NCBI GenBank assembly: GCA_033764315.1 | Contig: JANRJA010000245.1 | Location: forward strand, 1 to 20,760 | Origin: Oculatellaceae cyanobacterium bins.114 | Lineage (GTDB): Bacteria; Cyanobacteriota; Cyanobacteriia; Elainellales; Elainellaceae | DNA: 20,760 nucleotides | Direction of reading: 5' to 3' | Shown: one piece after another, positions 2,602 to 10,505 of the stretch | Position numbering within the stretch: the first letter of the stretch is position 1 | Layout of the letters: each line of letters begins with the position of its first letter | Program-made: the position numbers and the translations under genes | The notes under the pieces: generated by a model | Database searches by the model: none | What the model saw: the letters and a program-made list of their open reading frames with translations, nothing else | Told to the model about the DNA's origin: nothing

Positions 2602-2819
2602 GAGGGGAAATTCCAAAAAATTGCTCAAACTGGAGGACTAAATTACAAGACCTATCACGCAACAGTGTGCAATCGGTAGTCTACCGTGCTCTCTCCGCTA
2701 AGTCCTATCAACAATATTCAACCTTGTCAGAAATAGAGTTCATCCGAGTGCAATGGAGAATGGGGTACAGGCAAACTGAACGGCGTGAGGGTCGAAATCC
2801 CTTATCTCTGCAAATCCCT

Positions 2820-3584
2820 ATGATGAATGTAGTCGCTTATTCTCAACGCTCTGTAACAGGTGACAGTTTAGATTGCACTTCAGCAGATTGGCTCACCTAC
2901 TTCCGCTTTAATCGAGAAAACTTGCGATCGCTGCCCTGGGAGAGAGATATAGCATTAACCGCCGTTGAGAAGCTCAGAATTGCTTATTCGATTAGCTATT
3001 TTCAATTAGGTGAAAGCTCTGAAGGAGCACACCTGATGCGGCTATCACGAGACTATGCTGAGCGAGTGGGCGATCGCCACTGGGTTGAGACAGTGAAACT
3101 GTTTATCGGTGAAGAGCAACGCCATGCTAAAGATTTGGGTCGGTTCATGCAACAACAACAGTTGCCCCTGGCTAAACAGCATTGGTCTGATACGTGGTTT
3201 CGCACCTTGCGACGATTAGCCAATCTGGAAGTTGCCCTCATGGTGTTATTGACAGCTGAGTTGGTGGCAACCCTTTATTACCCGGCGTTAGGCTCTGCTA
3301 CCCAATCCCCTCTGCTACACGATCTTTGTCAGCAAATTCATCATGATGAGATGCGACATGTTCAGTTTCAAACGGAGACGTTACATCGCATTTGGCGATT
3401 GCACCCACACTGGCGACAGCGTCTGACCCAAACCCTCTATCCCCTGTTCTTTCAAGCCACTCTGATTGTGGTTTGGGTCAACCATGCTCCAGTCCTAAAA
3501 GCCGCAGGCTATTCCTTCACAGCATTCTTCCAAAGAGCGTGTGCTGCGTTGCAAAGTAGTTTATTAGAAAAGAAAAATATATAG
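2820..3584 (+). CDS. Ferritin-like di-iron carboxylate domain protein
   Basis: Ligand pattern FQLGE...EEQRH...AELVA...DEMRH (two ExxH motifs). Start uncertain: ATG 2820 or 2823; the ORF is open from GTG 2667. Confidence 0.78.
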   Translation: MMNVVAYSQRSVTGDSLDCTSADWLTYFRFNRENLRSLPWERDIALTAVEKLRIAYSISYFQLGESSEGAHLMRLSRDYAERVGDRHWVETVKLFIGEEQRHAKDLGRFMQQQQLPLAKQHWSDTWFRTLRRLANLEVALMVLLTAELVATLYYPALGSATQSPLLHDLCQQIHHDEMRHVQFQTETLHRIWRLHPHWRQRLTQTLYPLFFQATLIVVWVNHAPVLKAAGYSFTAFFQRACAALQSSLLEKKNI

Positions 3585-3637
3585 ATTCAGTAAACTTGCT
3601 GAAGCGTTCATAGATGCAGATGCTAGACTGAATCTAT
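3581..3637. terminator. Inverted repeat at the 3' end of the ferritin-like gene (possible terminator or mRNA-stabilising stem)
   Basis: Perfect 11-bp arms ATAGATTCAGT (3581-3591) and ACTGAATCTAT (3627-3637). Large loop, no strong U-tract. Confidence 0.35.
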
Positions 3638-3775
3638 TAGTAATGTTGCAAAAGGTTGCAGTGCGTTGAGAATTTCAGCATTAACTGGTCGTTCTTGGCT
3701 GCCAGTGTGGTACTTAGAAATGAAATTGCAGCGCAAACGGCTCTCAGATCCGGCTCTGTCGTGGGCAGACCGCTG

Positions 3776-4045
3776 TGAGGGACCTAGTATGAGCTGATCG
3801 ACCTGTAACTGTAGGTTTGCAGGCAGTAGCTATTGGCTACCCACTAGAGATGAGACGAATGCTGTTTCTAGTTGCCTCGCCAACTCGGTCGGTCAATTCT
3901 CAATGGAGAGTTTTTCCCTTAACTGAATGATCGGATGATGGCAAATTGCTCTGCGTTTGTTGCAGTGCTTCATCTGCCCACATTTGTGATTGGTTCGTAA
4001 CCCAGTTGCAAAGAGGTAGGGCTGTTTGTCGTTTGCCTATCCTTC
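3776..4045 (+). promoter_or_regulatory. Structured 5' leader of speY (candidate cis-regulatory RNA or attenuator)
   Basis: Nested stems 3776-3782/3915-3921, 3795-3803/3887-3895, 3821-3826/3872-3877, 3826-3830/3836-3840 and 3843-3852/3863-3872. Further hairpins at 3932-3976, about 3984-4011 and about 4014-4043. Confidence 0.45.
3817..3930 (+). CDS. Putative leader peptide (uORF) upstream of speY: MQAVAIGYPLEMRRMLFLVASPTRSVNSQWRVFPLTE
   Basis: Manual translation: open from TTG 3817 (in-frame ATGs at 3850 and 3859) to TGA 3928-3930. Below the ORF-track length cutoff. Same strand as speY and 175 nt upstream of its start. Confidence 0.55.
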   Translation: MQAVAIGYPLEMRRMLFLVASPTRSVNSQWRVFPLTE

Positions 4046-4105
4046 CGTTGATCAAACGCATGTTCACTTCACTTTAATGTGTTGAATTCATTTGGGAGTA
4101 CCACC

Positions 4106-5299
4106 ATGTCTAACCTACTCAATCGTAAAATTGCCCCCACGCCCATGCCCACTGAAATTGGGGTGGTGGATTTGATTGACAGCTATTTTACGGCTTATAA
4201 CTCAGCTCGTCTGCGGGAAATCTGTCACTTGTTGAGCCGTGAGGTGATGCAAGAAGGAGTCACCGTTGGTCTTAGTCTCTCTGGAGCGTTGACCCCTGCT
4301 GGGTTTGGCGTGTCTGTACTATCTCCACTGATGCGTCACGGCTTTATTGACTGGATCATTAGCACTGGAGCTAACCTCTACCATGATTTGCACTACGGCT
4401 TGGGGCTAAACCTTTATAGCGGCAATCCGTTTGTGGATGATGTCAAACTGCGTGAAGAGGGGCAAATTCGCATCTATGACATTACCTTTGGGTATGACGT
4501 GTTGCTTGAAACGGATGCCTTTATTCGAGAGCTACTGCGGGCAGAACCCTTTCAAAAACGCATGGGTACCGCTGAATTTCATTACCTGTTGGGCAAATAC
4601 ATTAATGCTGTTGAAAAGCAAATTGGGGTGCAACATTCCTGTTTGCTATCCACAGCTTATGAGTGTGGAGTGCCAATCTACACTTCGTCTCCGGGTGATA
4701 GCTCCATTGGTATGAATGTGGCGGCTCTCGCGCTAGAAGGGTCAAAGTTAATTCTTGATCCTTCCCAGGATGTCAATGAAACAGCGGCGATCGCCTATAC
4801 CGCTCGTGATTCAGCGATCGCTGGTGAAGAAGGCAAGAGTGCTGCAATCATTTTGGGGGGCGGCAGTCCTAAAAACTTCTTGCTGCAAACTCAACCTCAG
4901 ATCCATGAGGTGTTGGGATTAGAGGAACGGGGACATGACTACTTTGTACAAATCACCGATGCTCGCCCTGATACTGGCGGATTGTCGGGCGCAACTCCCT
5001 CTGAAGCCGTAAGTTGGGGCAAGATCGACCCTCATGAGTTACCCAGCACCATTGTCTGCTACACCGATAGCACGATCGCCCTACCGATCATGACCGCTTA
5101 TGTAATGAGCCAGTGCGCTCCTCGTCCTTTAAAGCGGCTCTATGATCGCCGAGAAGAAATGCTCGATCGGTTGCGGTTAGCCTATTACGCGGCAAAAACC
5201 CGTCAACCAGAACAAGCTACAGCGGCGATCGCTCAGATTGTCACCGCTACTCGTGAACCTGTAGCGACTTACCCCTGTGGTACGCCCATCAAACGGTAA
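4106..5299 (+). CDS. speY: Deoxyhypusine synthase-like homospermidine biosynthesis protein
   Basis: DHS motifs SGALTPAG, STGANLYHD, SSPGDSSIG, GGGSPKNF and DARPDTGGLSGATPSEAVSWGK. GGGAG RBS before ATG 4106. The cyanobacterial DHS homologue makes homospermidine (established in Anabaena). Confidence 0.9.
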   Translation: MSNLLNRKIAPTPMPTEIGVVDLIDSYFTAYNSARLREICHLLSREVMQEGVTVGLSLSGALTPAGFGVSVLSPLMRHGFIDWIISTGANLYHDLHYGLGLNLYSGNPFVDDVKLREEGQIRIYDITFGYDVLLETDAFIRELLRAEPFQKRMGTAEFHYLLGKYINAVEKQIGVQHSCLLSTAYECGVPIYTSSPGDSSIGMNVAALALEGSKLILDPSQDVNETAAIAYTARDSAIAGEEGKSAAIILGGGSPKNFLLQTQPQIHEVLGLEERGHDYFVQITDARPDTGGLSGATPSEAVSWGKIDPHELPSTIVCYTDSTIALPIMTAYVMSQCAPRPLKRLYDRREEMLDRLRLAYYAAKTRQPEQATAAIAQIVTATREPVATYPCGTPIKR

Positions 5300-5319
5300 T
5301 AGGGGAAAGGATAAAAGTG

Positions 5320-5365
5320 AAGCGGTGGTGGGTTGTGTGTCATTAAACCTCACTGCCGCTTTTTT
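5320..5365 (+). terminator. Rho-independent terminator of speY
   Basis: AAGCGGTGGTG-GGTT...AACC-T-CACTGCCGCTT stem followed by a T6 tract. Confidence 0.75.
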
Positions 5366-5427
5366 GCTGCAAACGACCTTACGGACTCTGAGAATCTCGG
5401 CAGTTCGAGAAGTGCCCGTTCAAATGG

Positions 5428-5825
5428 CTAGAGTGATGTACGCACCTCTAATCCTGGGATTCCTGCAAAGTCTTTTACGTTGTGGGTCACGAGTGGGAGA
5501 TTATAGCGAAGTGCTGTTGCAGCAATCCATGCATCTTGAACAGAGATCGGTTTTCCTGTGGTTTGCATTGCTGCTCTCAGACTTCCCCAAGAACGACACA
5601 ATTCAATATCGACAGGGATGATCAGGTAGTTGGTGAGAGTTTGCTCAAGTTGCCTAATACGAGGTTCACCCCAATTACAAATTGCAGCCATTGAAAAAGT
5701 TCAGCAACTGTCATAAACGAAAGTGCCAGTTGATTATCCTGCAACAGTGTGGTGTAGTTTTCAGCGCGGCTATCTTGCTTAAAAATAAATGACACTACGT
5801 CGGTATCTATCAAAAGAATACTCAT
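5428..5825 (-). pseudogene. vapC: VapC/PIN-domain toxin with a 1-nt frameshift
   Basis: N-half LLIDTDVVS...SFMTVAELFQW lies in ORF 5622-5825; C-half ...GKPISVQDAWIAATAL...LVTHNVKDF lies in ORF 5428-5691. The span is 398 nt, one short of 133 codons. Adding one G at TGG|CT (5688-5689) restores ...FQWAAICNWG... Confidence 0.88.
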
Positions 5826-6118
5826 AACATCTCAATTGCTTCAGAGGTGCGTTGTCGCCGCAAAAATATTAGAAATTCATCCCCTGATTCATCACTCTCC
5901 CAAAAGTCAAGCTTCAGTGAACTCAGGTCAGTAATGACAGGAGGCTTTTGTTCTTGAATAAGTTGGTCTAGTGAATGAAAAACCCAAAACCGCTCGTTCT
6001 GTGCTTCCAAGGAATCCGGTTTTTGAATAATATTTGATAAGACGCGCAGCAATTCGATTTGCTCAGTTTGTGAGAGCAAGTGAACTAGATGAATAGCTTG
6101 TTGGAGTTGAGGAGTCAT
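5822..6118 (-). CDS. Probable antitoxin (hypothetical protein) of the VapC module
   Basis: 98 aa with an acidic C-terminus (DFWESDESGDEFLIFLRRQR). Its stop overlaps the vapC start (ATGA, 5822-5825), the standard type II TA layout. Confidence 0.7.
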   Translation of the reverse strand: MTPQLQQAIHLVHLLSQTEQIELLRVLSNIIQKPDSLEAQNERFWVFHSLDQLIQEQKPPVITDLSSLKLDFWESDESGDEFLIFLRRQRTSEAIEML

Positions 6119-6716: not shown

Positions 6717-7637
6717 TCAGTTTCGATGATTGTTGCTGTAGCGAATCCGTGCGCCTGCCCACTGGAGTTTTTCGCGCAAGGTTTGATAGTAGGAATAATT
6801 TTCTTTCAAAATGATAAATTGTGCCTGACACTCTGCCATGCGAATGTCAACTCGTTGTCCGGGCCAAATGGAGGTGGCTAATACCCCATCCATCCATAAC
6901 TTTGTGGTCAGTTCGCGATCGGCAAGAGGCCATATGCTAACCACCGAACCAGGGGGTAACACAATGGGGCGACTAGAAAGGCTGAGGGGGCAGATAGGGG
7001 TAACGGCGATCGCCTCCATGCCGGGATGAATGATCGGGCCGTTTGCCGCGACGGTGTAGCAGGTAGAACCAGTAGGGGTAGCTACGATTAGCCCATCACC
7101 CTGATATTGATCGACGACTTCTCCATCGATTTCCATTTCCAAAATGGAGGTGATCATGCGATCGGCAGAGGCAGGTTTAACGCACATCTCATTGAGAGCG
7201 AGGTAGCGATCGCTCATCGGTTCTTGATTGCTGCGATTGCCCTCAAAGGTTGTTGCTTGCAGCATCATGCGACGTTGTACTGCAAATCGATCGTCTTGAA
7301 GCCGATCTAATAAAAGACTGGGATTGCTAAAATCATCAGCGGATTCTGTCAGGAACCCTAACGTTCCACCGATATTGAGTGCCAAGATGGGGATTCCTTC
7401 AGGGGCAAGATGCCGAGCAGCTCCCAAGGCTGTGCCATCCCCACCCAAGACCAACGCAAAATCGATCGGCTTGGAAACCGACGCCAAAAAAACAGGATAG
7501 GGATTGTCTTTAGCCCCGCTAGGTCCTAACAAGACCTTGCAATTTCTAGCTTCCAACTGTCGGGCACAACTTTCTGCCCAACGCTGACTGAGCAGATCAC
7601 CCGCTTTATGAATAATGATGACTTGGTTTAATTCCAC
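6717..7637 (-). CDS. nadK: NAD(+) kinase
   Basis: LGGDGT, ALNE and GDGLIVATPTGSTCY motifs. Lies downstream of ndhE, as is common in cyanobacteria. Confidence 0.96.
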   Translation of the reverse strand: MELNQVIIIHKAGDLLSQRWAESCARQLEARNCKVLLGPSGAKDNPYPVFLASVSKPIDFALVLGGDGTALGAARHLAPEGIPILALNIGGTLGFLTESADDFSNPSLLLDRLQDDRFAVQRRMMLQATTFEGNRSNQEPMSDRYLALNEMCVKPASADRMITSILEMEIDGEVVDQYQGDGLIVATPTGSTCYTVAANGPIIHPGMEAIAVTPICPLSLSSRPIVLPPGSVVSIWPLADRELTTKLWMDGVLATSIWPGQRVDIRMAECQAQFIILKENYSYYQTLREKLQWAGARIRYSNNHRN

Positions 7638-7657
7638 TCCCGGCGATGCTCAATCTG

Positions 7658-7963
7658 CTACCACTTCAACAGATTGAATTGCTCCATATCTACAGTATCG
7701 CGGTTACGGTAAATCGATAGAACAATCGCCAAACCAACGGCTGCTTCAGCGGCTGCAATTGAGATGACAAACACTGCAAATACTTGCCCTTTAACCCCTT
7801 CAGGGTCAAGGTAGTTGGAGAATGCCATCAGGTTGATATTGACTGCGTTAAGCAATAACTCAATCGACATCAATACCCGAATGGCGTTGCGACTGGTGAC
7901 TAGACCGTAGATGCCAATGCAAAACAAGGCAGCAGCAATGAGAAGAAAGTATTGGAGTTGCAT
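7658..7963 (-). CDS. ndhE: NAD(P)H-quinone oxidoreductase (NDH-1) subunit 4L/E
   Basis: MQLQYFLL...[19 protein letters not shown]...[12 protein letters not shown]...FNLLKW. ATG 7963 gives 101 aa. Confidence 0.97.
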
Positions 7964-7989
7964 GGGTTGGTTCAATCTAGAAGGGTCAA

Positions 7990-8637
7990 TTAAGCGTTGC
8001 GATCGCCAGGTGAGTCAGTAATAGTGCGCTCTGGACGGCTGATGCCAACTGAGGTCAGCTCACGAGGTCGCTCTGGCAAGGTCAGAATTGGCTGCTGTGG
8101 TTGCACCGCAGAAGAATCTTCGGGCAAGAATTCACGGCGTGCGAGGACGATCGCCCCAATTAACGCCATTAACAGCAACACGGAGACCAACTCAAACGGC
8201 AGCAAAAAGTCACTAAAGAAATGCAAACCAATCGTAACAGTTGCCTCATCTCCAGCGATTGGGGCACTCGAAATAGCCCACGGGGTAGCAATAACCATCG
8301 TTCCCAACAGGGCAAAAAGACCAACACAAACCACCGCTGTGGCAGCTTTGCCTAACCAAGCATTGGCCATAGGTTGAAAGGGTTGTCGCTTGTTAACCAG
8401 CATGATCCCAAACAGGATCAACACATTAACCGCTCCAACATAGATGAGAATTTGAGCGGCAGCGACGAACCCAGCATTGAGCAGGATGTACAACCCAGAA
8501 ATACTAATAAAAACACCGCCCAGTAAGAAAGCTGAATAGACGATGTTATTTAACAACACGACACCCAGAGCTGCTGCCAGCGTCATGAAAGTCAGGATGC
8601 CAAACGAAACAATTTGAACCCCATCTGCTAAATTCAC
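7990..8637 (-). CDS. ndhG: NDH-1 subunit 6/G
   Basis: [30 protein letters not shown] and [14 protein letters not shown] motifs; operon position. Confidence 0.97.
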
Positions 8638-8741
8638 CGCTACCTTATCTCCATCAAAACTGCATCAACGTATCTAATCGCGATCCCTTGCGGGTATCTC
8701 AGAGAGATCGCCCGATCAACGGTTTAGCTGATCAGCTCAAG

Positions 8742-9329
8742 CTATTTAGCTTCCATGTCTTCTAAGATTTCTTCTGGCATCTTACCAGCCCGACGAGACC
8801 CTGCTGGCAACCCATGTGGTTCTAATACCCCTTTGGGCAGGTAGGCAAGTTCACGTAATGGCGTCACCATTGGATCCTCTGTCACCTTATAAGGCAAGCG
8901 ACCCAACGCCACGTTGTCAAAATTAAGTTCATGGCGATCGTAGGTTGCCAGTTCATATTCCTCTGTCATAGAGAGGCAATTGGTAGGGCAATACTCAACG
9001 CAGTTGCCACAAAAAATACAAACTCCGAAGTCAATGCTGTAGTGATTCAACTTTTTCTTCTTGGTTTCTTTGTTGAACTCCCAATCCACTACAGGCAGGT
9101 TAATTGGGCAAACCCGGACACACACTTCACAAGCAATACACTTGTCAAACTCGAAGTGAATGCGACCGCGAAATCGCTCCGAGGGGATCAATTTTTCGTA
9201 GGGATATTGAACCGTGATAGGACGGCGTTGCATGTGGTCAAAGGTAACAGATAGCCCTTGTCCAATGTATTTTGCCGCTTGTCCTGCCTCTTTTGCATAG
9301 TCAACAACAGACTTGAGAAATTTCAGCAT
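8742..9329 (-). CDS. ndhI: NDH-1 subunit I (2x[4Fe-4S])
   Basis: [12 protein letters not shown] and [21 protein letters not shown]. Confidence 0.98.
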
Positions 9330-9386
9330 GGCGTTAACAGTAGGGTTGAAGCAAATAGGGTTTGAGCTAGGAGGGAATGGGTCGGA

Positions 9387-10505
9387 TTAACCGCCAAAAG
9401 CAACGGGAAAGGCAAGCTTAAGACCAGCTGTAAGCAGCAGATTGACGAGCGAGACAGGGAGTAAAAATTTCCAACCTAAGTCTAGCAATTGGTCAATCCG
9501 GACGCGAGGAACTGTCCACCGGAGAAGAATAGCGATGAAAACAAGCAAATATGCCTTAAAGACAGTCATCGTGATGCCGATCGCCCCAGTAATAACTTGC
9601 AGCCACGGAGTCGTCTCACTGACCCCAATCCAATTAGCGAGCAAGTTAATGGGAATTGGAAAATCCCAACCGCCCAAGTACAGCACAGCCACAAACAGAG
9701 ATGACAGGATCAGGTTAACGTAGGAACTCAGGTAGAACAGACCAAACTTCATACCGGAATACTCAGTCTGATACCCGGCGACCAACTCTTCTTCTGCTTC
9801 AGGTAAGTCAAATGGAAGGCGTTCACACTCTGCAAGGGCTGCAATCCAAAAAATGAGGAAGCCAATGGGTTGTCGCCAGACATTCCAGCCTAAGATGCCA
9901 TAGCCTGATTGCTGATTAACGATGTCAATTGTGCTGAGCGAGTTTGACATCATGACGATCGCCAATACTGACAAGGCTAAGGGCAGCTCATAGCTAATCG
10001 ACTGAGCGGCGGCTCGCAAGCCACCTAACAAAGAGTATTTATTATTGGAGGCATAACCTGACATTAGCAAGCCAATGGGCGCGATACTCGACAACGCAAT
10101 CCACAGGAACACGCCAACACCCAGATCAGTAATTTGCAAGTTCTGACCAAAAGGAATGACCAGGTAGGACAAGAAGACAGGTATAACAACCAGTACAGGC
10201 CCTAAGGTAAAGAGCCAAGGATCCGATTTGGTCGGGATCAAGTCTTCCTTAAACAGCAGCTTGGCTCCATCAGCAATTGGGATCAACATTCCCAGCGGGC
10301 CCGCAAACTCAGGACCAATGCGCTGTTGAGCCGAAGCAGAAATCTTTCTTTCTAACCAGGTTGTAACCAACACCCCAAAAGTTGCACCCAGCAACATCAA
10401 GATCATGGGTAAAGGCAGCCAGATTAATTTTGCTAACTCTGGCGACAAGCCAAAACCAGTCAGAGCTTCAATAAAGCTTCCTTGTAAATCAATTCCAGAA
10501 TTCAT
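9387..10505 (-). CDS. ndhA: NDH-1 subunit 1/A
   Basis: [27 protein letters not shown] and [23 protein letters not shown] motifs; 372 aa. Confidence 0.98.

Follow-up and report, generated by a model that had tools for sequence, protein, structure and literature searches.

The window, a 20,760-nucleotide stretch of contig JANRJA010000245.1 (assembly GCA_033764315.1) from Oculatellaceae cyanobacterium bins.114, carries on its forward strand a speY-type homospermidine biosynthesis gene of the deoxyhypusine synthase (DS) family (positions 4106..5299, 397 amino acids). The identification of this gene as speY in the original prediction was confirmed: its product matches the Pfam DS family with an E value of 6.3e-70 and scores 574 bits against NCBIfam NF001980 ('homospermidine biosynthesis protein'), above the equivalog cut-off of 450. 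In Anabaena, homospermidine synthesis and normal diazotrophic growth require SpeY (as cited in the excerpted text of PMC13625781). The gap between the upstream gene and speY spans positions 3585-4105 (521 nt, in agreement with the ~520 nt given previously). Within the final 150 nt 5' of speY, the sole well conserved block among 30 loci is TTTGGGAG, in which we place the Shine-Dalgarno sequence of the gene (GGGAG, 4094..4098, + strand). The leader region described below is single-copy in the genome, ruling out a repeat or mobile element.

We identified in this gap an ORF of 43 codons on the + strand (3666..3797; MRISALTGRSWLPVWYLEMKLQRKRLSDPALSWADRCEGPSMS), which starts with TTG and stops with TGA. 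The ORF is unannotated, and gene callers miss the element. It is intact in 30/30 relatives, with TTG (28 loci) or GTG (2 loci) as the start codon, TGA as the stop codon in all 30, and a length of 42-48 codons that equals 43 in 27 of them. It is also intact in 80/80 named cyanobacterial genome loci, starting with TTG or GTG and stopping with TGA throughout; none of the 30 relatives and 80 named loci has an ATG start. The pN/pS ratio is 0.18 at codons 13-43 (the last 31) and 0.66 at codons 2-12, and thus the constrained stretch is approximately as long as the ribosomal exit tunnel. Purifying selection is therefore concentrated in the C-terminal, tunnel-length part, as is expected of leader ORFs of the SpeFL and TnaC kind. 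Over the last 31 codons, the other + frames have pN/pS ratios of 1.33 and 1.98, with 76 and 56 stops. Antisense coding was ruled out, as the minus frames have ratios of 0.36-2.27 and contain stops in 2-22 of the 30 loci. The peptide has 13 invariant columns and the consensus ..WYLEMKLQRRRLxDPALSWxDRCEGPSM. It matches no family in Pfam (E up to 10) or NCBIfam (E up to 1), and a comparison with a protein atlas gave no usable match. Attenuation through the arginine codons of the R-K/R-R cluster was considered and set aside, as its logic fits poorly and the whole peptide is under selection.

Upstream of the ORF we found elements resembling those of a promoter. An extended -10-like element, TGCTAGACT (TGnTAnnnT; 3621..3629, + strand), is present in 28/29 loci at 39-56 nt 5' of the TTG start, and places the putative transcription start near 3636. 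A simple sigma-70 scan detected no two-hexamer promoter. Centred ~40 nt 5' of this presumed start, the conserved columns of the 30-locus alignment reveal a semi-conserved upstream box (3590..3603, + strand), which reads GTA-N8-GAA here and GTrAT..CTGA in relatives and is a possible activator site. The NtcA site consensus is GTA-N8-TAC, and the box does not match it as a canonical NtcA site. Ten nt 5' of the TTG start lies a Shine-Dalgarno-like AAAAGG (3650..3655, + strand); the AAGG-type motif before the start codon is conserved, with variable spacing. Pairing of the 5' UTR segment GGTTGCAG with the CTGTAAC of an internal loop further downstream, noticed by eye, was dropped, since the UTR motif varies in position and several loci lack it.

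The end of the ORF forms part of a long-range RNA helix, P1 (3795-3803 with 3887-3895), on the + strand. The 5' strand (3790..3803) consists of a core at 3795-3803 (TGATCGACC), which includes the TGA stop, and an extension at 3790-3793 in the last two codons; the 3' strand is a segment that we call box B (3887..3895, GGTCGGTCA). This pairing was found by RNAduplex in 30/30 loci, at -15.5 to -24.0 kcal/mol. The nine core pairs are 99% paired across 84 sequences, seven of them with compensatory changes. The 5' strand runs from the last codons through the stop to 6 nt beyond it; a ribosome positioned where the ORF ends would block the helix.

Enclosed by P1 is a second helix, P3, also on the + strand. 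Its 5' strand (3814..3825, GGTTTGCAGGCA) contains the TTG at 3817, and its 3' strand (3873..3885) has the consensus CCTnGCAAACT in relatives; the window reads GCCAAC here, giving one mismatch. Pairing across the 10 pairs of the model (3814-3823 with 3875-3885) is 88-93%, with compensatory changes at 6 of them in 32 sequences and 7 in 84 sequences; pairs between 3824-3825 and 3873-3874 were noticed by eye only and left out of these counts. Taken together, the two helices reach 96.0% pairing in 32 sequences (slid controls, 22-49%), where 9/19 pairs are compensatory, and 93.6% in 84 sequences, where 14/19 are. One such pair is CG in 41, UA in 41 and UG in 2 of the 84 sequences. The covariation in the larger set is 0.328 vs 0.184, and 0/500 shuffles reach it. 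Both helices are contained in 12 of 14 unconstrained minimum free energy (MFE) folds. Between them, on the 5' side, lies an asymmetric internal loop (3804..3813, TGTAACTGTA) with invariant alignment columns; its CTGyAAC motif is nearly invariant though modelled as unpaired, and occurs in 83/86 distinct leaders (absent from L051, L053 and L056). The apical domain (3826..3872) is variable in both length and sequence among relatives, as seen from alignment gaps and indels, and contains local hairpins in the MFE folds. A search of positions 3400-4300 against Rfam 15 returned two chance-level matches only (E 1.1 and 1.4; 16-17 bits vs gathering thresholds of 50-100), and thus no known RNA family.

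Box B is followed by a small, weak hairpin, AATTCTC-AATG-GAGAGTT (3895-3912), and a T-run at 3911-3915 (together 3895..3915, + strand). The CTCA of the hairpin's 5' arm (3899-3902) can alternatively pair with the last codons of the ORF, as the extension of P1. In the 23/32 leaders that have a T-run, the hairpin preceding it has an energy of 0.0 to -6.6 kcal/mol, and the T-run is absent from the scanned interval in the other 9/32. Across 84 leaders, a T-run is found 5-45 nt 3' of P1 in 74, vs 38 in a control interval, at a median of +17. Among the 12 MFE folds with P1, the helix covers the 5' arm of the small hairpin in 7, leaving the hairpin unformed, and the hairpin coexists with the core of P1 in 4. 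Our scan found no canonical terminator, including between leader and speY. A permissive search of this interval, run without a shuffle control, gave hairpins of <=-8 kcal/mol before T-runs in 66/77 loci, at scattered positions. No conserved promoter-like block was found between leader and speY in 30 loci. Metatranscriptome contigs of a relative (<90% alike) are confined to 3749-3933 and stop short of speY. In the genome, which is 90.7% complete, the best match to Rho scores 22.8 bits vs a cut-off of 509, and cyanobacteria are reported to be without Rho (PMC12642595).

We detected the leader peptide at 17 places in 16 genomes of a 401-genome sample of the phylum (E <=8e-12), in all 17 on the same strand as, and just 5' of, a DS-family gene. 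At least 121 genome loci have the element, and in the 80 named loci examined SpeY is encoded 217-753 nt 3' of the leader in 77, the contigs being cut in the other 3. Carriers include Leptolyngbya-like, Thermosynechococcus-like, Chroococcidiopsis and other lineages. The leader is linked with two enzyme clades, NF001980 and the distinct NF002699 (583-593 bits), and one genome has a leader copy before each. In three loci of the latter clade the gap between leader and enzyme gene is only 71-78 nt. These paralogue-type copies stop with TAA or TAG, and the conserved Ser is followed by 2 to 7 codons before the stop, so that the distance from CEGPS to the stop varies. In two of them (L044 and L045) we noticed by eye a sequestration of the Shine-Dalgarno sequence by codons of the upstream ORF, which the MFE folds did not reproduce. 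The upstream neighbour is variable: at 69 loci it falls into 34 clusters, the five largest of which have divergent members only. In one family of 45 sampled genomes speY is present in 40/45 and the leader in 0/45, and thus the leader is dispensable.

Given these analyses, we propose that the leader ORF and its stop-codon helix before the homospermidine gene probably constitute a new cyanobacterial control element that senses translation. The unit would have five parts: the extended -10 promoter (3621-3629), the TTG-initiated ORF, P1 with P3, the small hairpin with its T-run, and speY ~190 nt further on. Specifically, we favour, with a probability of roughly 0.6, a cis-acting leader on which a ribosome, while terminating or stalled, gates P1 and hence read-through into speY. 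What we infer in this proposal is that leader and speY are co-transcribed, that ribosomes stall, that there is an effector, and in which direction and at which level control acts. The TTG start would give weak initiation of the 43-codon ORF. A ribosome on the ORF end, either slow in termination or arrested by the conserved nascent peptide, possibly together with a metabolite of the agmatine/homospermidine pathway, would mask P1's 5' strand, so that neither box B nor the small hairpin's 5' arm is paired. Upon departure of the ribosome P1 would form, and in many species the pairing could extend to that 5' arm. We favour an output at the level of transcription, which would be attenuated or pause at the hairpin and T-run. 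Presence of the ribosome may lower read-through, amounting to product feedback; the opposite sign is also possible. Counting against the leader reading are the very low stability of the small hairpin (0.0 to -6.6 kcal/mol) and the loss of the conserved internal loop in L051, L053 and L056, as well as the absence of the leader from the family with speY in 40/45 genomes. The switch between P1 and the hairpin is not clear-cut, because the two coexist in 4/12 folds, and the variable distance from CEGPS to the stop in the paralogue type argues against a strict arrest at termination.

We speculate further that the conserved peptide may be an arrest peptide that senses agmatine, homospermidine or its bis-guanidino precursor, gates the stop-codon helix without Rho and controls both clades of homospermidine enzymes, possibly with the help of a small aptamer-like loop. 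We put this more specific version forward tentatively.

Alternatively, the 43 codons may encode a small protein in its own right, with a promoter and a weak terminator of its own. This protein would work in trans on the homospermidine pathway, for instance by regulating the DS-family enzyme, partnering it or serving as its substrate; P1 and P3 would then be a stabilising or terminating 3' structure. The strong amino-acid conservation (pN/pS 0.18, 13 invariant residues), the conserved extended -10 of its own and the stem and T-run after the stop fit such a protein equally well. Its near-fixed length of 43 codons in 27/30 loci also favours this possibility, and the strict co-occurrence with two DS-family clades is compatible with a protein partner. 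An AlphaFold2 model predicts helices at residues 11-27 and 29-36; however, there is no confident fold (mean pLDDT 64.4, pTM 0.33). The lack of ATG starts in the 30 + 80 loci would be unusual if the protein must accumulate, the N-terminal 11 codons are under weak constraint (0.66), and only 4 predicted proteins in a collection of 5.8 billion clusters match the peptide, all of them unnamed. Moreover, the covarying helix begins within the last codons and takes in the stop, and a plain terminator would not predict the nearly invariant internal loop. In the three loci where the enzyme gene begins 71-78 nt after the ORF, a separate transcription unit is unlikely because the gap is so short. On balance we regard a protein acting in trans as rather unlikely.

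A second alternative is that P1, the internal loop and P3 form a small riboswitch-like RNA that binds a ligand or protein and is the true sensor, translation of the ORF merely modulating access to P1. Covarying stems around a nearly invariant unpaired CTGyAAC, with a variable distal domain, are the usual pattern of an aptamer, and the element precedes genes of a single pathway. Such an RNA would, however, leave the selection on the peptide sequence unexplained; it has no Rfam match, and the loop is small, and three loci that retain the ORF and the long-range helix lack it. We consider this explanation improbable.

The cis-acting leader that we favour can be compared with several known systems. 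In SpeFL, a short leader ORF lies directly 5' of speF, an mRNA hairpin takes in the 3' end of the ORF, and downstream transcription is set by the position of the ribosome at the ORF end (10.1101/604074, excerpt). The likeness consists in a short leader ORF 5' of a polyamine-synthesis gene and a helix containing the ORF's 3' end. SpeFL has 34 codons, a UAG stop, a block of RF1 and a Rho-dependent read-out (excerpt of 10.1101/604074), unlike the present leader, with 43 codons, a TTG or GTG start and a TGA stop in a genome without Rho above the cut-off. The enzymes also differ, being ornithine decarboxylase for SpeFL and a DS-family homospermidine enzyme here. The two peptides, compared via family libraries only, are unlinked in Pfam and NCBIfam. 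TnaC has conserved residues along its tunnel-length part and arrests at a UGA stop via RF2 (excerpts of PMC8450073 and PMC10941005). The main-type leader here likewise stops invariably at TGA. TnaC, however, responds to tryptophan and depends on Rho; the TGA of the present leader also pairs within P1, and the paralogue-type copies end in TAA or TAG. The invariance of TGA could be due to the pairing in P1 alone, because the stop is part of that helix.

In trp/his-type attenuators and mgtL-like leaders, the place of the leading ribosome selects between alternative pairings before a hairpin and U-run. The position of a ribosome on the leader ORF described here would similarly select an RNA pairing before a hairpin and T-run. 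Unlike in the trp/his attenuators, there is no run of one regulatory codon, only the basic R-K/R-R cluster; the peptide sequence is itself under selection, and the hairpin preceding the T-run falls far short of a canonical terminator in strength. In the mammalian AdoMetDC uORF and the antizyme frameshift site, control lies in how translation proceeds at the stop of a short upstream frame, near which there is RNA structure. They share with our leader a polyamine-pathway gene, a short upstream frame and RNA structure at its stop codon, but they are eukaryotic scanning or frameshift mechanisms. Unlike for antizyme, there is no conserved frameshift product, because the +1 frame (3817..3930) is not conserved; a +1 frameshift at the TGA (3797) into that frame was therefore ruled out.

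To our knowledge, the regulation of cyanobacterial polyamine synthesis is essentially undescribed. Our literature search found no leader for speY and no paper matching the leader element. The element is precisely delimited and testable, from the promoter through the 43-codon TTG ORF and the covarying stop-codon helix to the T-run. If it senses a metabolite of the pathway, it would represent the first cyanobacterial nascent-peptide sensor to be described, a model of leader-ORF control without Rho, and a small regulatory part for engineering cyanobacteria. If the conserved peptide indeed arrests the ribosome, the leader would be a Rho-independent counterpart to SpeFL.

The original prediction had placed an unannotated same-strand leader ORF with an RNA hairpin before speY. 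This general idea holds for the ORF at 3666..3797, which lies 20 nt upstream of the proposed frame, has a conserved C-terminal peptide with RNA structure at its end, is under strong purifying selection and is tightly linked to speY-type genes; it does not hold for the ORF picked by eye, and the real one was revealed solely by comparing relatives. The ORF proposed there does exist on the + strand, from TTG 3817 to TGA 3930, encodes 37 amino acids with the translation given, and ends 175 nt before the speY ATG at 4106. Its frame is +1 with respect to the conserved ORF, and it crosses P3, the apical domain, box B, the small hairpin and the T-run. Counting all six frames, 13 ORFs of >=20 amino acids, this one among them, overlap positions 3500-4200. 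A tblastn search of its peptide against 30 upstream regions matched only the window itself and a same-genus relative (L002, SpeY 94% identical), the latter as two pieces in two different frames; all remaining matches had E >=0.068, several with stops, leaving no similarity among 28 further relatives. In L002 the TTG at 3817 is TGG, the ATG at 3850 is absent, and the frame is shifted twice, once by 1 nt inserted near 3847 and once by 2 nt deleted near 3920. The length of the region also differs between relatives. Given the 13 ORFs nearby and the frame broken even in this close relative, the ORF is no more than expected by chance: it is a chance frame, not a gene.

An arrest peptide ending in SQWRVFPLTE, translated from TTG 3817 or ATG 3850 and stalling ribosomes in response to polyamines or arginine, is thus extremely unlikely and is refuted by the criterion that the original prediction itself set, since relatives conserve neither the frame nor the C-terminal peptide, and what conservation there is lies at the nucleotide level, with indels. 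The hairpin drawn at its start (CCTGTAA 3802-3808 with TTGCAGG 3817-3823) can be formed, with 7 pairs including one G-U, but does not covary. Across 32 relatives, 85% of its cells are paired with 0 compensatory pairs, a level of pairing reached by 469-500 of 500 shuffles. Both of its arms are parts of other, covarying helices, and it is at most an alternative conformer. The conserved nucleotides within the ORF are accounted for by P3, P1, the small hairpin and the T-run, and SQWRVF is encoded by nucleotides that make up the 3' strand of a helix, the small hairpin and the T-run.

The gene at 4106-5299 encodes a protein of the deoxyhypusine synthase family (Pfam DS, 6.3e-70) whose score against NCBIfam NF001980 ('homospermidine biosynthesis protein'), 574 bits, exceeds the cut-off of 450, in agreement with its original assignment as speY. 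The original prediction placed an arrest-peptide uORF before this gene. The proposed 37-codon frame, TTG 3817 to TGA 3930, is present as read and ends 175 nt before ATG 4106, but it is unremarkable in itself, with 13 ORFs of at least 20 aa overlapping 3500-4200. Its peptide was matched by tblastn only in the window and in a same-genus relative (L002); all other matches had E values of at least 0.068, often with stops. The relative's SpeY is 94% identical, and the peptide is matched there as two pieces in two frames. Pairwise alignment gives four breaks: TTG 3817 is replaced by TGG, ATG 3850 is lost, and the relative has one extra nucleotide near 3847 and lacks two near 3920. The region is conserved at the nucleotide level only, with indels, a pattern that the original prediction itself named as refuting it. 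The frame is real but no more than expected by chance, and its interpretation as an arrest peptide was wrong. The general idea of a leader ORF was right for a neighbouring frame, at 3666..3797.

We identified this leader ORF by comparing speY loci. A SpeY search of 41 related genomes gave matches in 37, and 30 loci were kept with 1.5 kb of flank. The intergenic region contains a block (3643-3823), single-copy in the window's genome, that blastn detected upstream of speY in all 29 other loci with 72-84% identity. In the multiple alignment, the frame TTG 3666 to TGA 3797 (43 codons in the window) varies at third codon positions and has indels divisible by three. It is open for 42-48 codons and ends in TGA in all 30 loci. 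Its start codon is TTG in 28 loci and GTG in two, within a near-invariant GTTGAA context and preceded by an AAGG-type Shine-Dalgarno motif. The pN/pS is 0.18 over the last 31 codons; the other two plus-strand frames have values of 1.33 and 1.98 with 76 and 56 stops, and the minus-strand frames 0.36-2.27 with stops in 2-22 of the 30 loci. Synonymous codons vary at invariant residues, with at least four each for Leu, Arg and Pro. Together, these patterns point to an ORF that is selected and translated.

The peptide consensus is MKxxSxxGxPWxPLWYLEMKLQRRRLxDPALSWADRCEGPSMx, with 13 invariant columns. Constraint is uneven along the peptide: in the 27 loci that have 43 codons, pN/pS is 0.66 over codons 2-12 and 0.18 over codons 13-43. 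The constrained part is about as long as the ribosome tunnel, behind a start codon that is non-ATG throughout. The Ser codon three before the stop (window 3783-3788) is AGT in 30/30 loci, and all four TCN codons occur at the other invariant Ser. The exclusive use of AGT probably reflects an RNA-level constraint on the last codons, imposed by extension of the long-range helix described below. Searches of Pfam at E values up to 10 and of NCBIfam at values up to 1 assigned the peptide to no family, and it had no usable match in a protein atlas. Only four predicted proteins, all unnamed, matched it among 5.8 billion protein clusters, and the ORF has essentially been missed by gene callers.

The leader is linked to homospermidine genes well beyond these loci. 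In a 401-genome sample of the phylum, a peptide profile matched 17 places in 16 genomes with E values of 8e-12 or better (three further matches, E 0.0016-0.0074, are not counted among these), and a DS-family match follows just downstream on the same strand at all 17. Four of the places precede another clade, ~30% identical to SpeY and assigned to NF002699 '1,9-bis(guanidino)-5-aza-nonane synthase' (583-593 bits vs a cut-off of 500); one 2.5-Mb genome has one leader copy before each of the two enzyme clades. With one genome scanned per species, the peptide proved to be encoded at 121 loci. The best 80 of these, which partly overlap the first 30 because both sets are species representatives, come from Leptolyngbya-like, Elainellales, Oculatellaceae, Phormidesmis, Stenomitos, Thermosynechococcaceae, Hormoscilla, Chroococcidiopsis, Crinalium, Coleofasciculaceae, Desertifilum and Vacuolonema records. 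The TGA stop, with a TTG or GTG 41-48 codons before it, is present in every one of the 80, and SpeY lies 217-753 nt downstream on the same strand in 77, the contigs of the remaining three ending early. The gene upstream varies (34 clusters among 69 loci), and every member of the five largest upstream clusters is divergent. The upstream neighbour is thus not conserved, and the leader and speY travel as a unit. The leader is strictly associated with two clades of one pathway. It is not present everywhere: in one family, 40 of 45 sampled genomes have speY and none has the peptide.

The last codons and the stop of the leader ORF also serve as the 5' strand of a conserved RNA helix. The TGA and the next six bases (TGATCGACC, 3795-3803) are complementary to GGTCGGTCA (box B, 3887-3895), forming a long-range helix, P1, in 30/30 loci (-15.5 to -24.0 kcal/mol by RNAduplex). 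Nested within P1 is helix P3, formed by GGTTTGCAGG (3814-3823) and the consensus CCTnGCAAACT (3875-3885), with one mismatch in the window. Across both helices, 96.0% of cells are paired in an alignment of 32 leaders and 93.6% in one of 84, falling to 22-49% and 19-48%, respectively, when the partner is slid. Changes on both sides affect 9/19 pairs (41 cells) in the smaller alignment and 14/19 pairs (189 cells) in the larger. Covariation is 0.299 vs a shuffled mean of 0.197 and 0.328 vs 0.184, respectively, and was reached in 0/500 shuffles of either alignment. The larger alignment was fitted to a covariance model built from the smaller, which favours the structure; the slid controls and pair types (for example, CG 41, UA 41 and UG 2 at one pair and UA 41 and CG 34 at another) nevertheless speak clearly for P1 and P3. 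The originally proposed ORF covers P3, a variable apical domain, box B and the sequence after it, and the hairpin once drawn at its start, with arms taken from P1 plus the loop and from P3, has zero compensatory changes.

The covariance model recovered all 80 named loci and the four loci of the second enzyme clade, and found a single site in the window's genome (3765-3936, 131.7 bits). It matched none of 13 leader-less speY loci from five families (L031-L040, L048-L050), in which ~1.25 kb upstream also gave no good peptide match (one weak match, E 5.7e-5); the speY orthologues there are 70-79% identical by tblastn. In five of these genomes, searched whole, RNA matches were at chance level only and away from speY. 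Between the 5' strands of P1 and P3 is a 10-nt internal loop, TGTAACTGTA (3804-3813), unpaired in the model. Its CTGyAAC motif is nearly invariant, being absent only in three Vacuolonema-group loci, which keep a long-range helix including the stop. Read in the -1 frame relative to the leader ORF, the loop CTGTAAC of the window (3804-3809) contains a TAA. Rfam gave two chance-level matches only in 3400-4300.

Directly after box B there is usually a hairpin of 4-7 bp, often with a four-base loop, and then a T-run (3895-3912 and 3911-3915 in the window). Hairpin stability is low (0.0 to -6.6 kcal/mol among the 23/32 leaders with a T-run); the other nine have no T-run in the stretch scanned. A T-run lies 5-45 nt after P1 in 74/84 leaders (median position +17) vs 38/84 for a control window, and a simple scan found no canonical terminator. 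The best duplex formed by the ORF end runs on, in many species, beyond box B and takes in the hairpin's 5' arm. Of 14 unconstrained MFE folds, 12 contain both P1 and P3; among these 12, the extension over the hairpin arm forms in seven, the hairpin together with core P1 in four and neither in one. A second TGATCGGA (3925-3934), resembling the 5' strand of P1, follows the T-run in the window and pairs with box B in a ribosome-constrained fold; it is not conserved in the same-genus relative.

Upstream, a simple scan found no sigma-70 two-hexamer promoter. In 28/29 loci the start codon is preceded, at a distance of 39-56 nt, by an extended -10-like TGnTAnnnT (window 3621-3629). A semi-conserved box, GTrAT..CTGA (3590-3603), ~40 nt before the probable leader start, would suit a class II (CRP/NtcA-type) activator by its position; it does not match the canonical NtcA consensus. 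The Shine-Dalgarno sequence TTTGGGAG is the only well-conserved block in the 150 nt before speY.

We propose that the leader and speY share one transcript and that formation of P1 and its extension would decide the outcome at the small hairpin and T-run. A ribosome whose A site holds the stop codon shields some 12-15 nt downstream of it, so one at the ORF end would cover P1. A free ORF end would favour the P1 extension and read-through, and an occupied one the small hairpin with its T-run. When the hairpin's 5' arm emerges, its upstream partner, the last codons, has already been made, and given this kinetic order we lean towards a ribosome held at the ORF end lowering speY, which would suit feedback by homospermidine or its precursor. 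The opposite sign could also apply, with P1 stacking on and strengthening the weak hairpin and arrest inducing expression, as with the SpeFL and TnaC leader peptides. Rho was not found in the window's genome (90.7% complete; best 22.8 bits vs a cut-off of 509), in line with the report that cyanobacteria lack it (PMC12642595), so a Rho read-out of the SpeFL or TnaC type is excluded.

In the copies before the second enzyme clade, CEGPS has 2 to 7 codons after its Ser and then TAA or TAG. In one of them (L041), CGA stands in place of the TGA and the ORF continues through the P1 strand to a TAA at the corresponding loop position; the spacing from the conserved peptide end to P1 is kept and the stop position is not. 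Arrest, if any, may be elongation arrest near the GPSM codons rather than termination arrest. Only 71-78 nt separate the leader ORF from the enzyme gene in three of these four loci. In two with this spacing (L044, L045), the leader TAA is part of CUGCUAACC:GGUUAGCAG, a helix closing a small hairpin in an architecture like P1/P3 but of different sequence, and the AGGAGG Shine-Dalgarno of the enzyme gene is in a local hairpin with an upstream CUUCCU. This arrangement may be a translational version of the switch.

Alternatively, the leader ORF may be an independent micro-protein gene whose product acts in trans on the homospermidine pathway. The amino-acid conservation fits this, as do a promoter and T-run of the ORF's own, but it is less easily reconciled with a weak start codon in every locus, a helix that begins within the ORF, an invariant loop and a spacing of 71-78 nt, and we consider it less likely than action in cis. 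An AlphaFold2 model of the peptide, two helices at low confidence (mean pLDDT 64.4, pTM 0.33), decides nothing here. That P1, loop and P3 form a riboswitch-like sensor, which would be compatible with a leader ORF acting in cis, is less probable still.

Among known systems the nearest is SpeFL, the leader of speF, which likewise has a leader ORF before a polyamine gene and a hairpin that takes in the ORF's 3' end (10.1101/604074); the two have different peptides, stop codons, release factors and regulated enzymes, and they differ in their dependence on Rho. The element belongs to no described leader-peptide or RNA family in Rfam, Pfam or NCBIfam. Leader-ORF control of polyamine synthesis is known in kind, but we found no such element before speY in the literature searched on speY, on polyamines and on leader or arrest peptides of cyanobacteria, a coverage that excludes Burnat et al. 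2018; a term search of a 2026 JBC paper on SpeY found no 'leader', 'uORF' or 'riboswitch'.

The gene just upstream of the leader (2667-3584, +) encodes a 305-aa protein with weak, sub-threshold similarity to diiron/ferritin-like families (AurF, 22.9 bits, below the cut-off of 29.6; encapsulin-associated ferritin-like, E 0.02). Two ORFs without a Pfam family follow speY, at 5277-5621 (+, 114 aa), overlapping its end by 23 nt, and at 5822-6118 (-, 98 aa). Beyond them, 6717-10505 (-) encodes NAD kinase and then an ndh cluster (NADH dehydrogenase chains 4L and 6, a 4Fe-4S subunit and chain 1), an ordinary cyanobacterial context.
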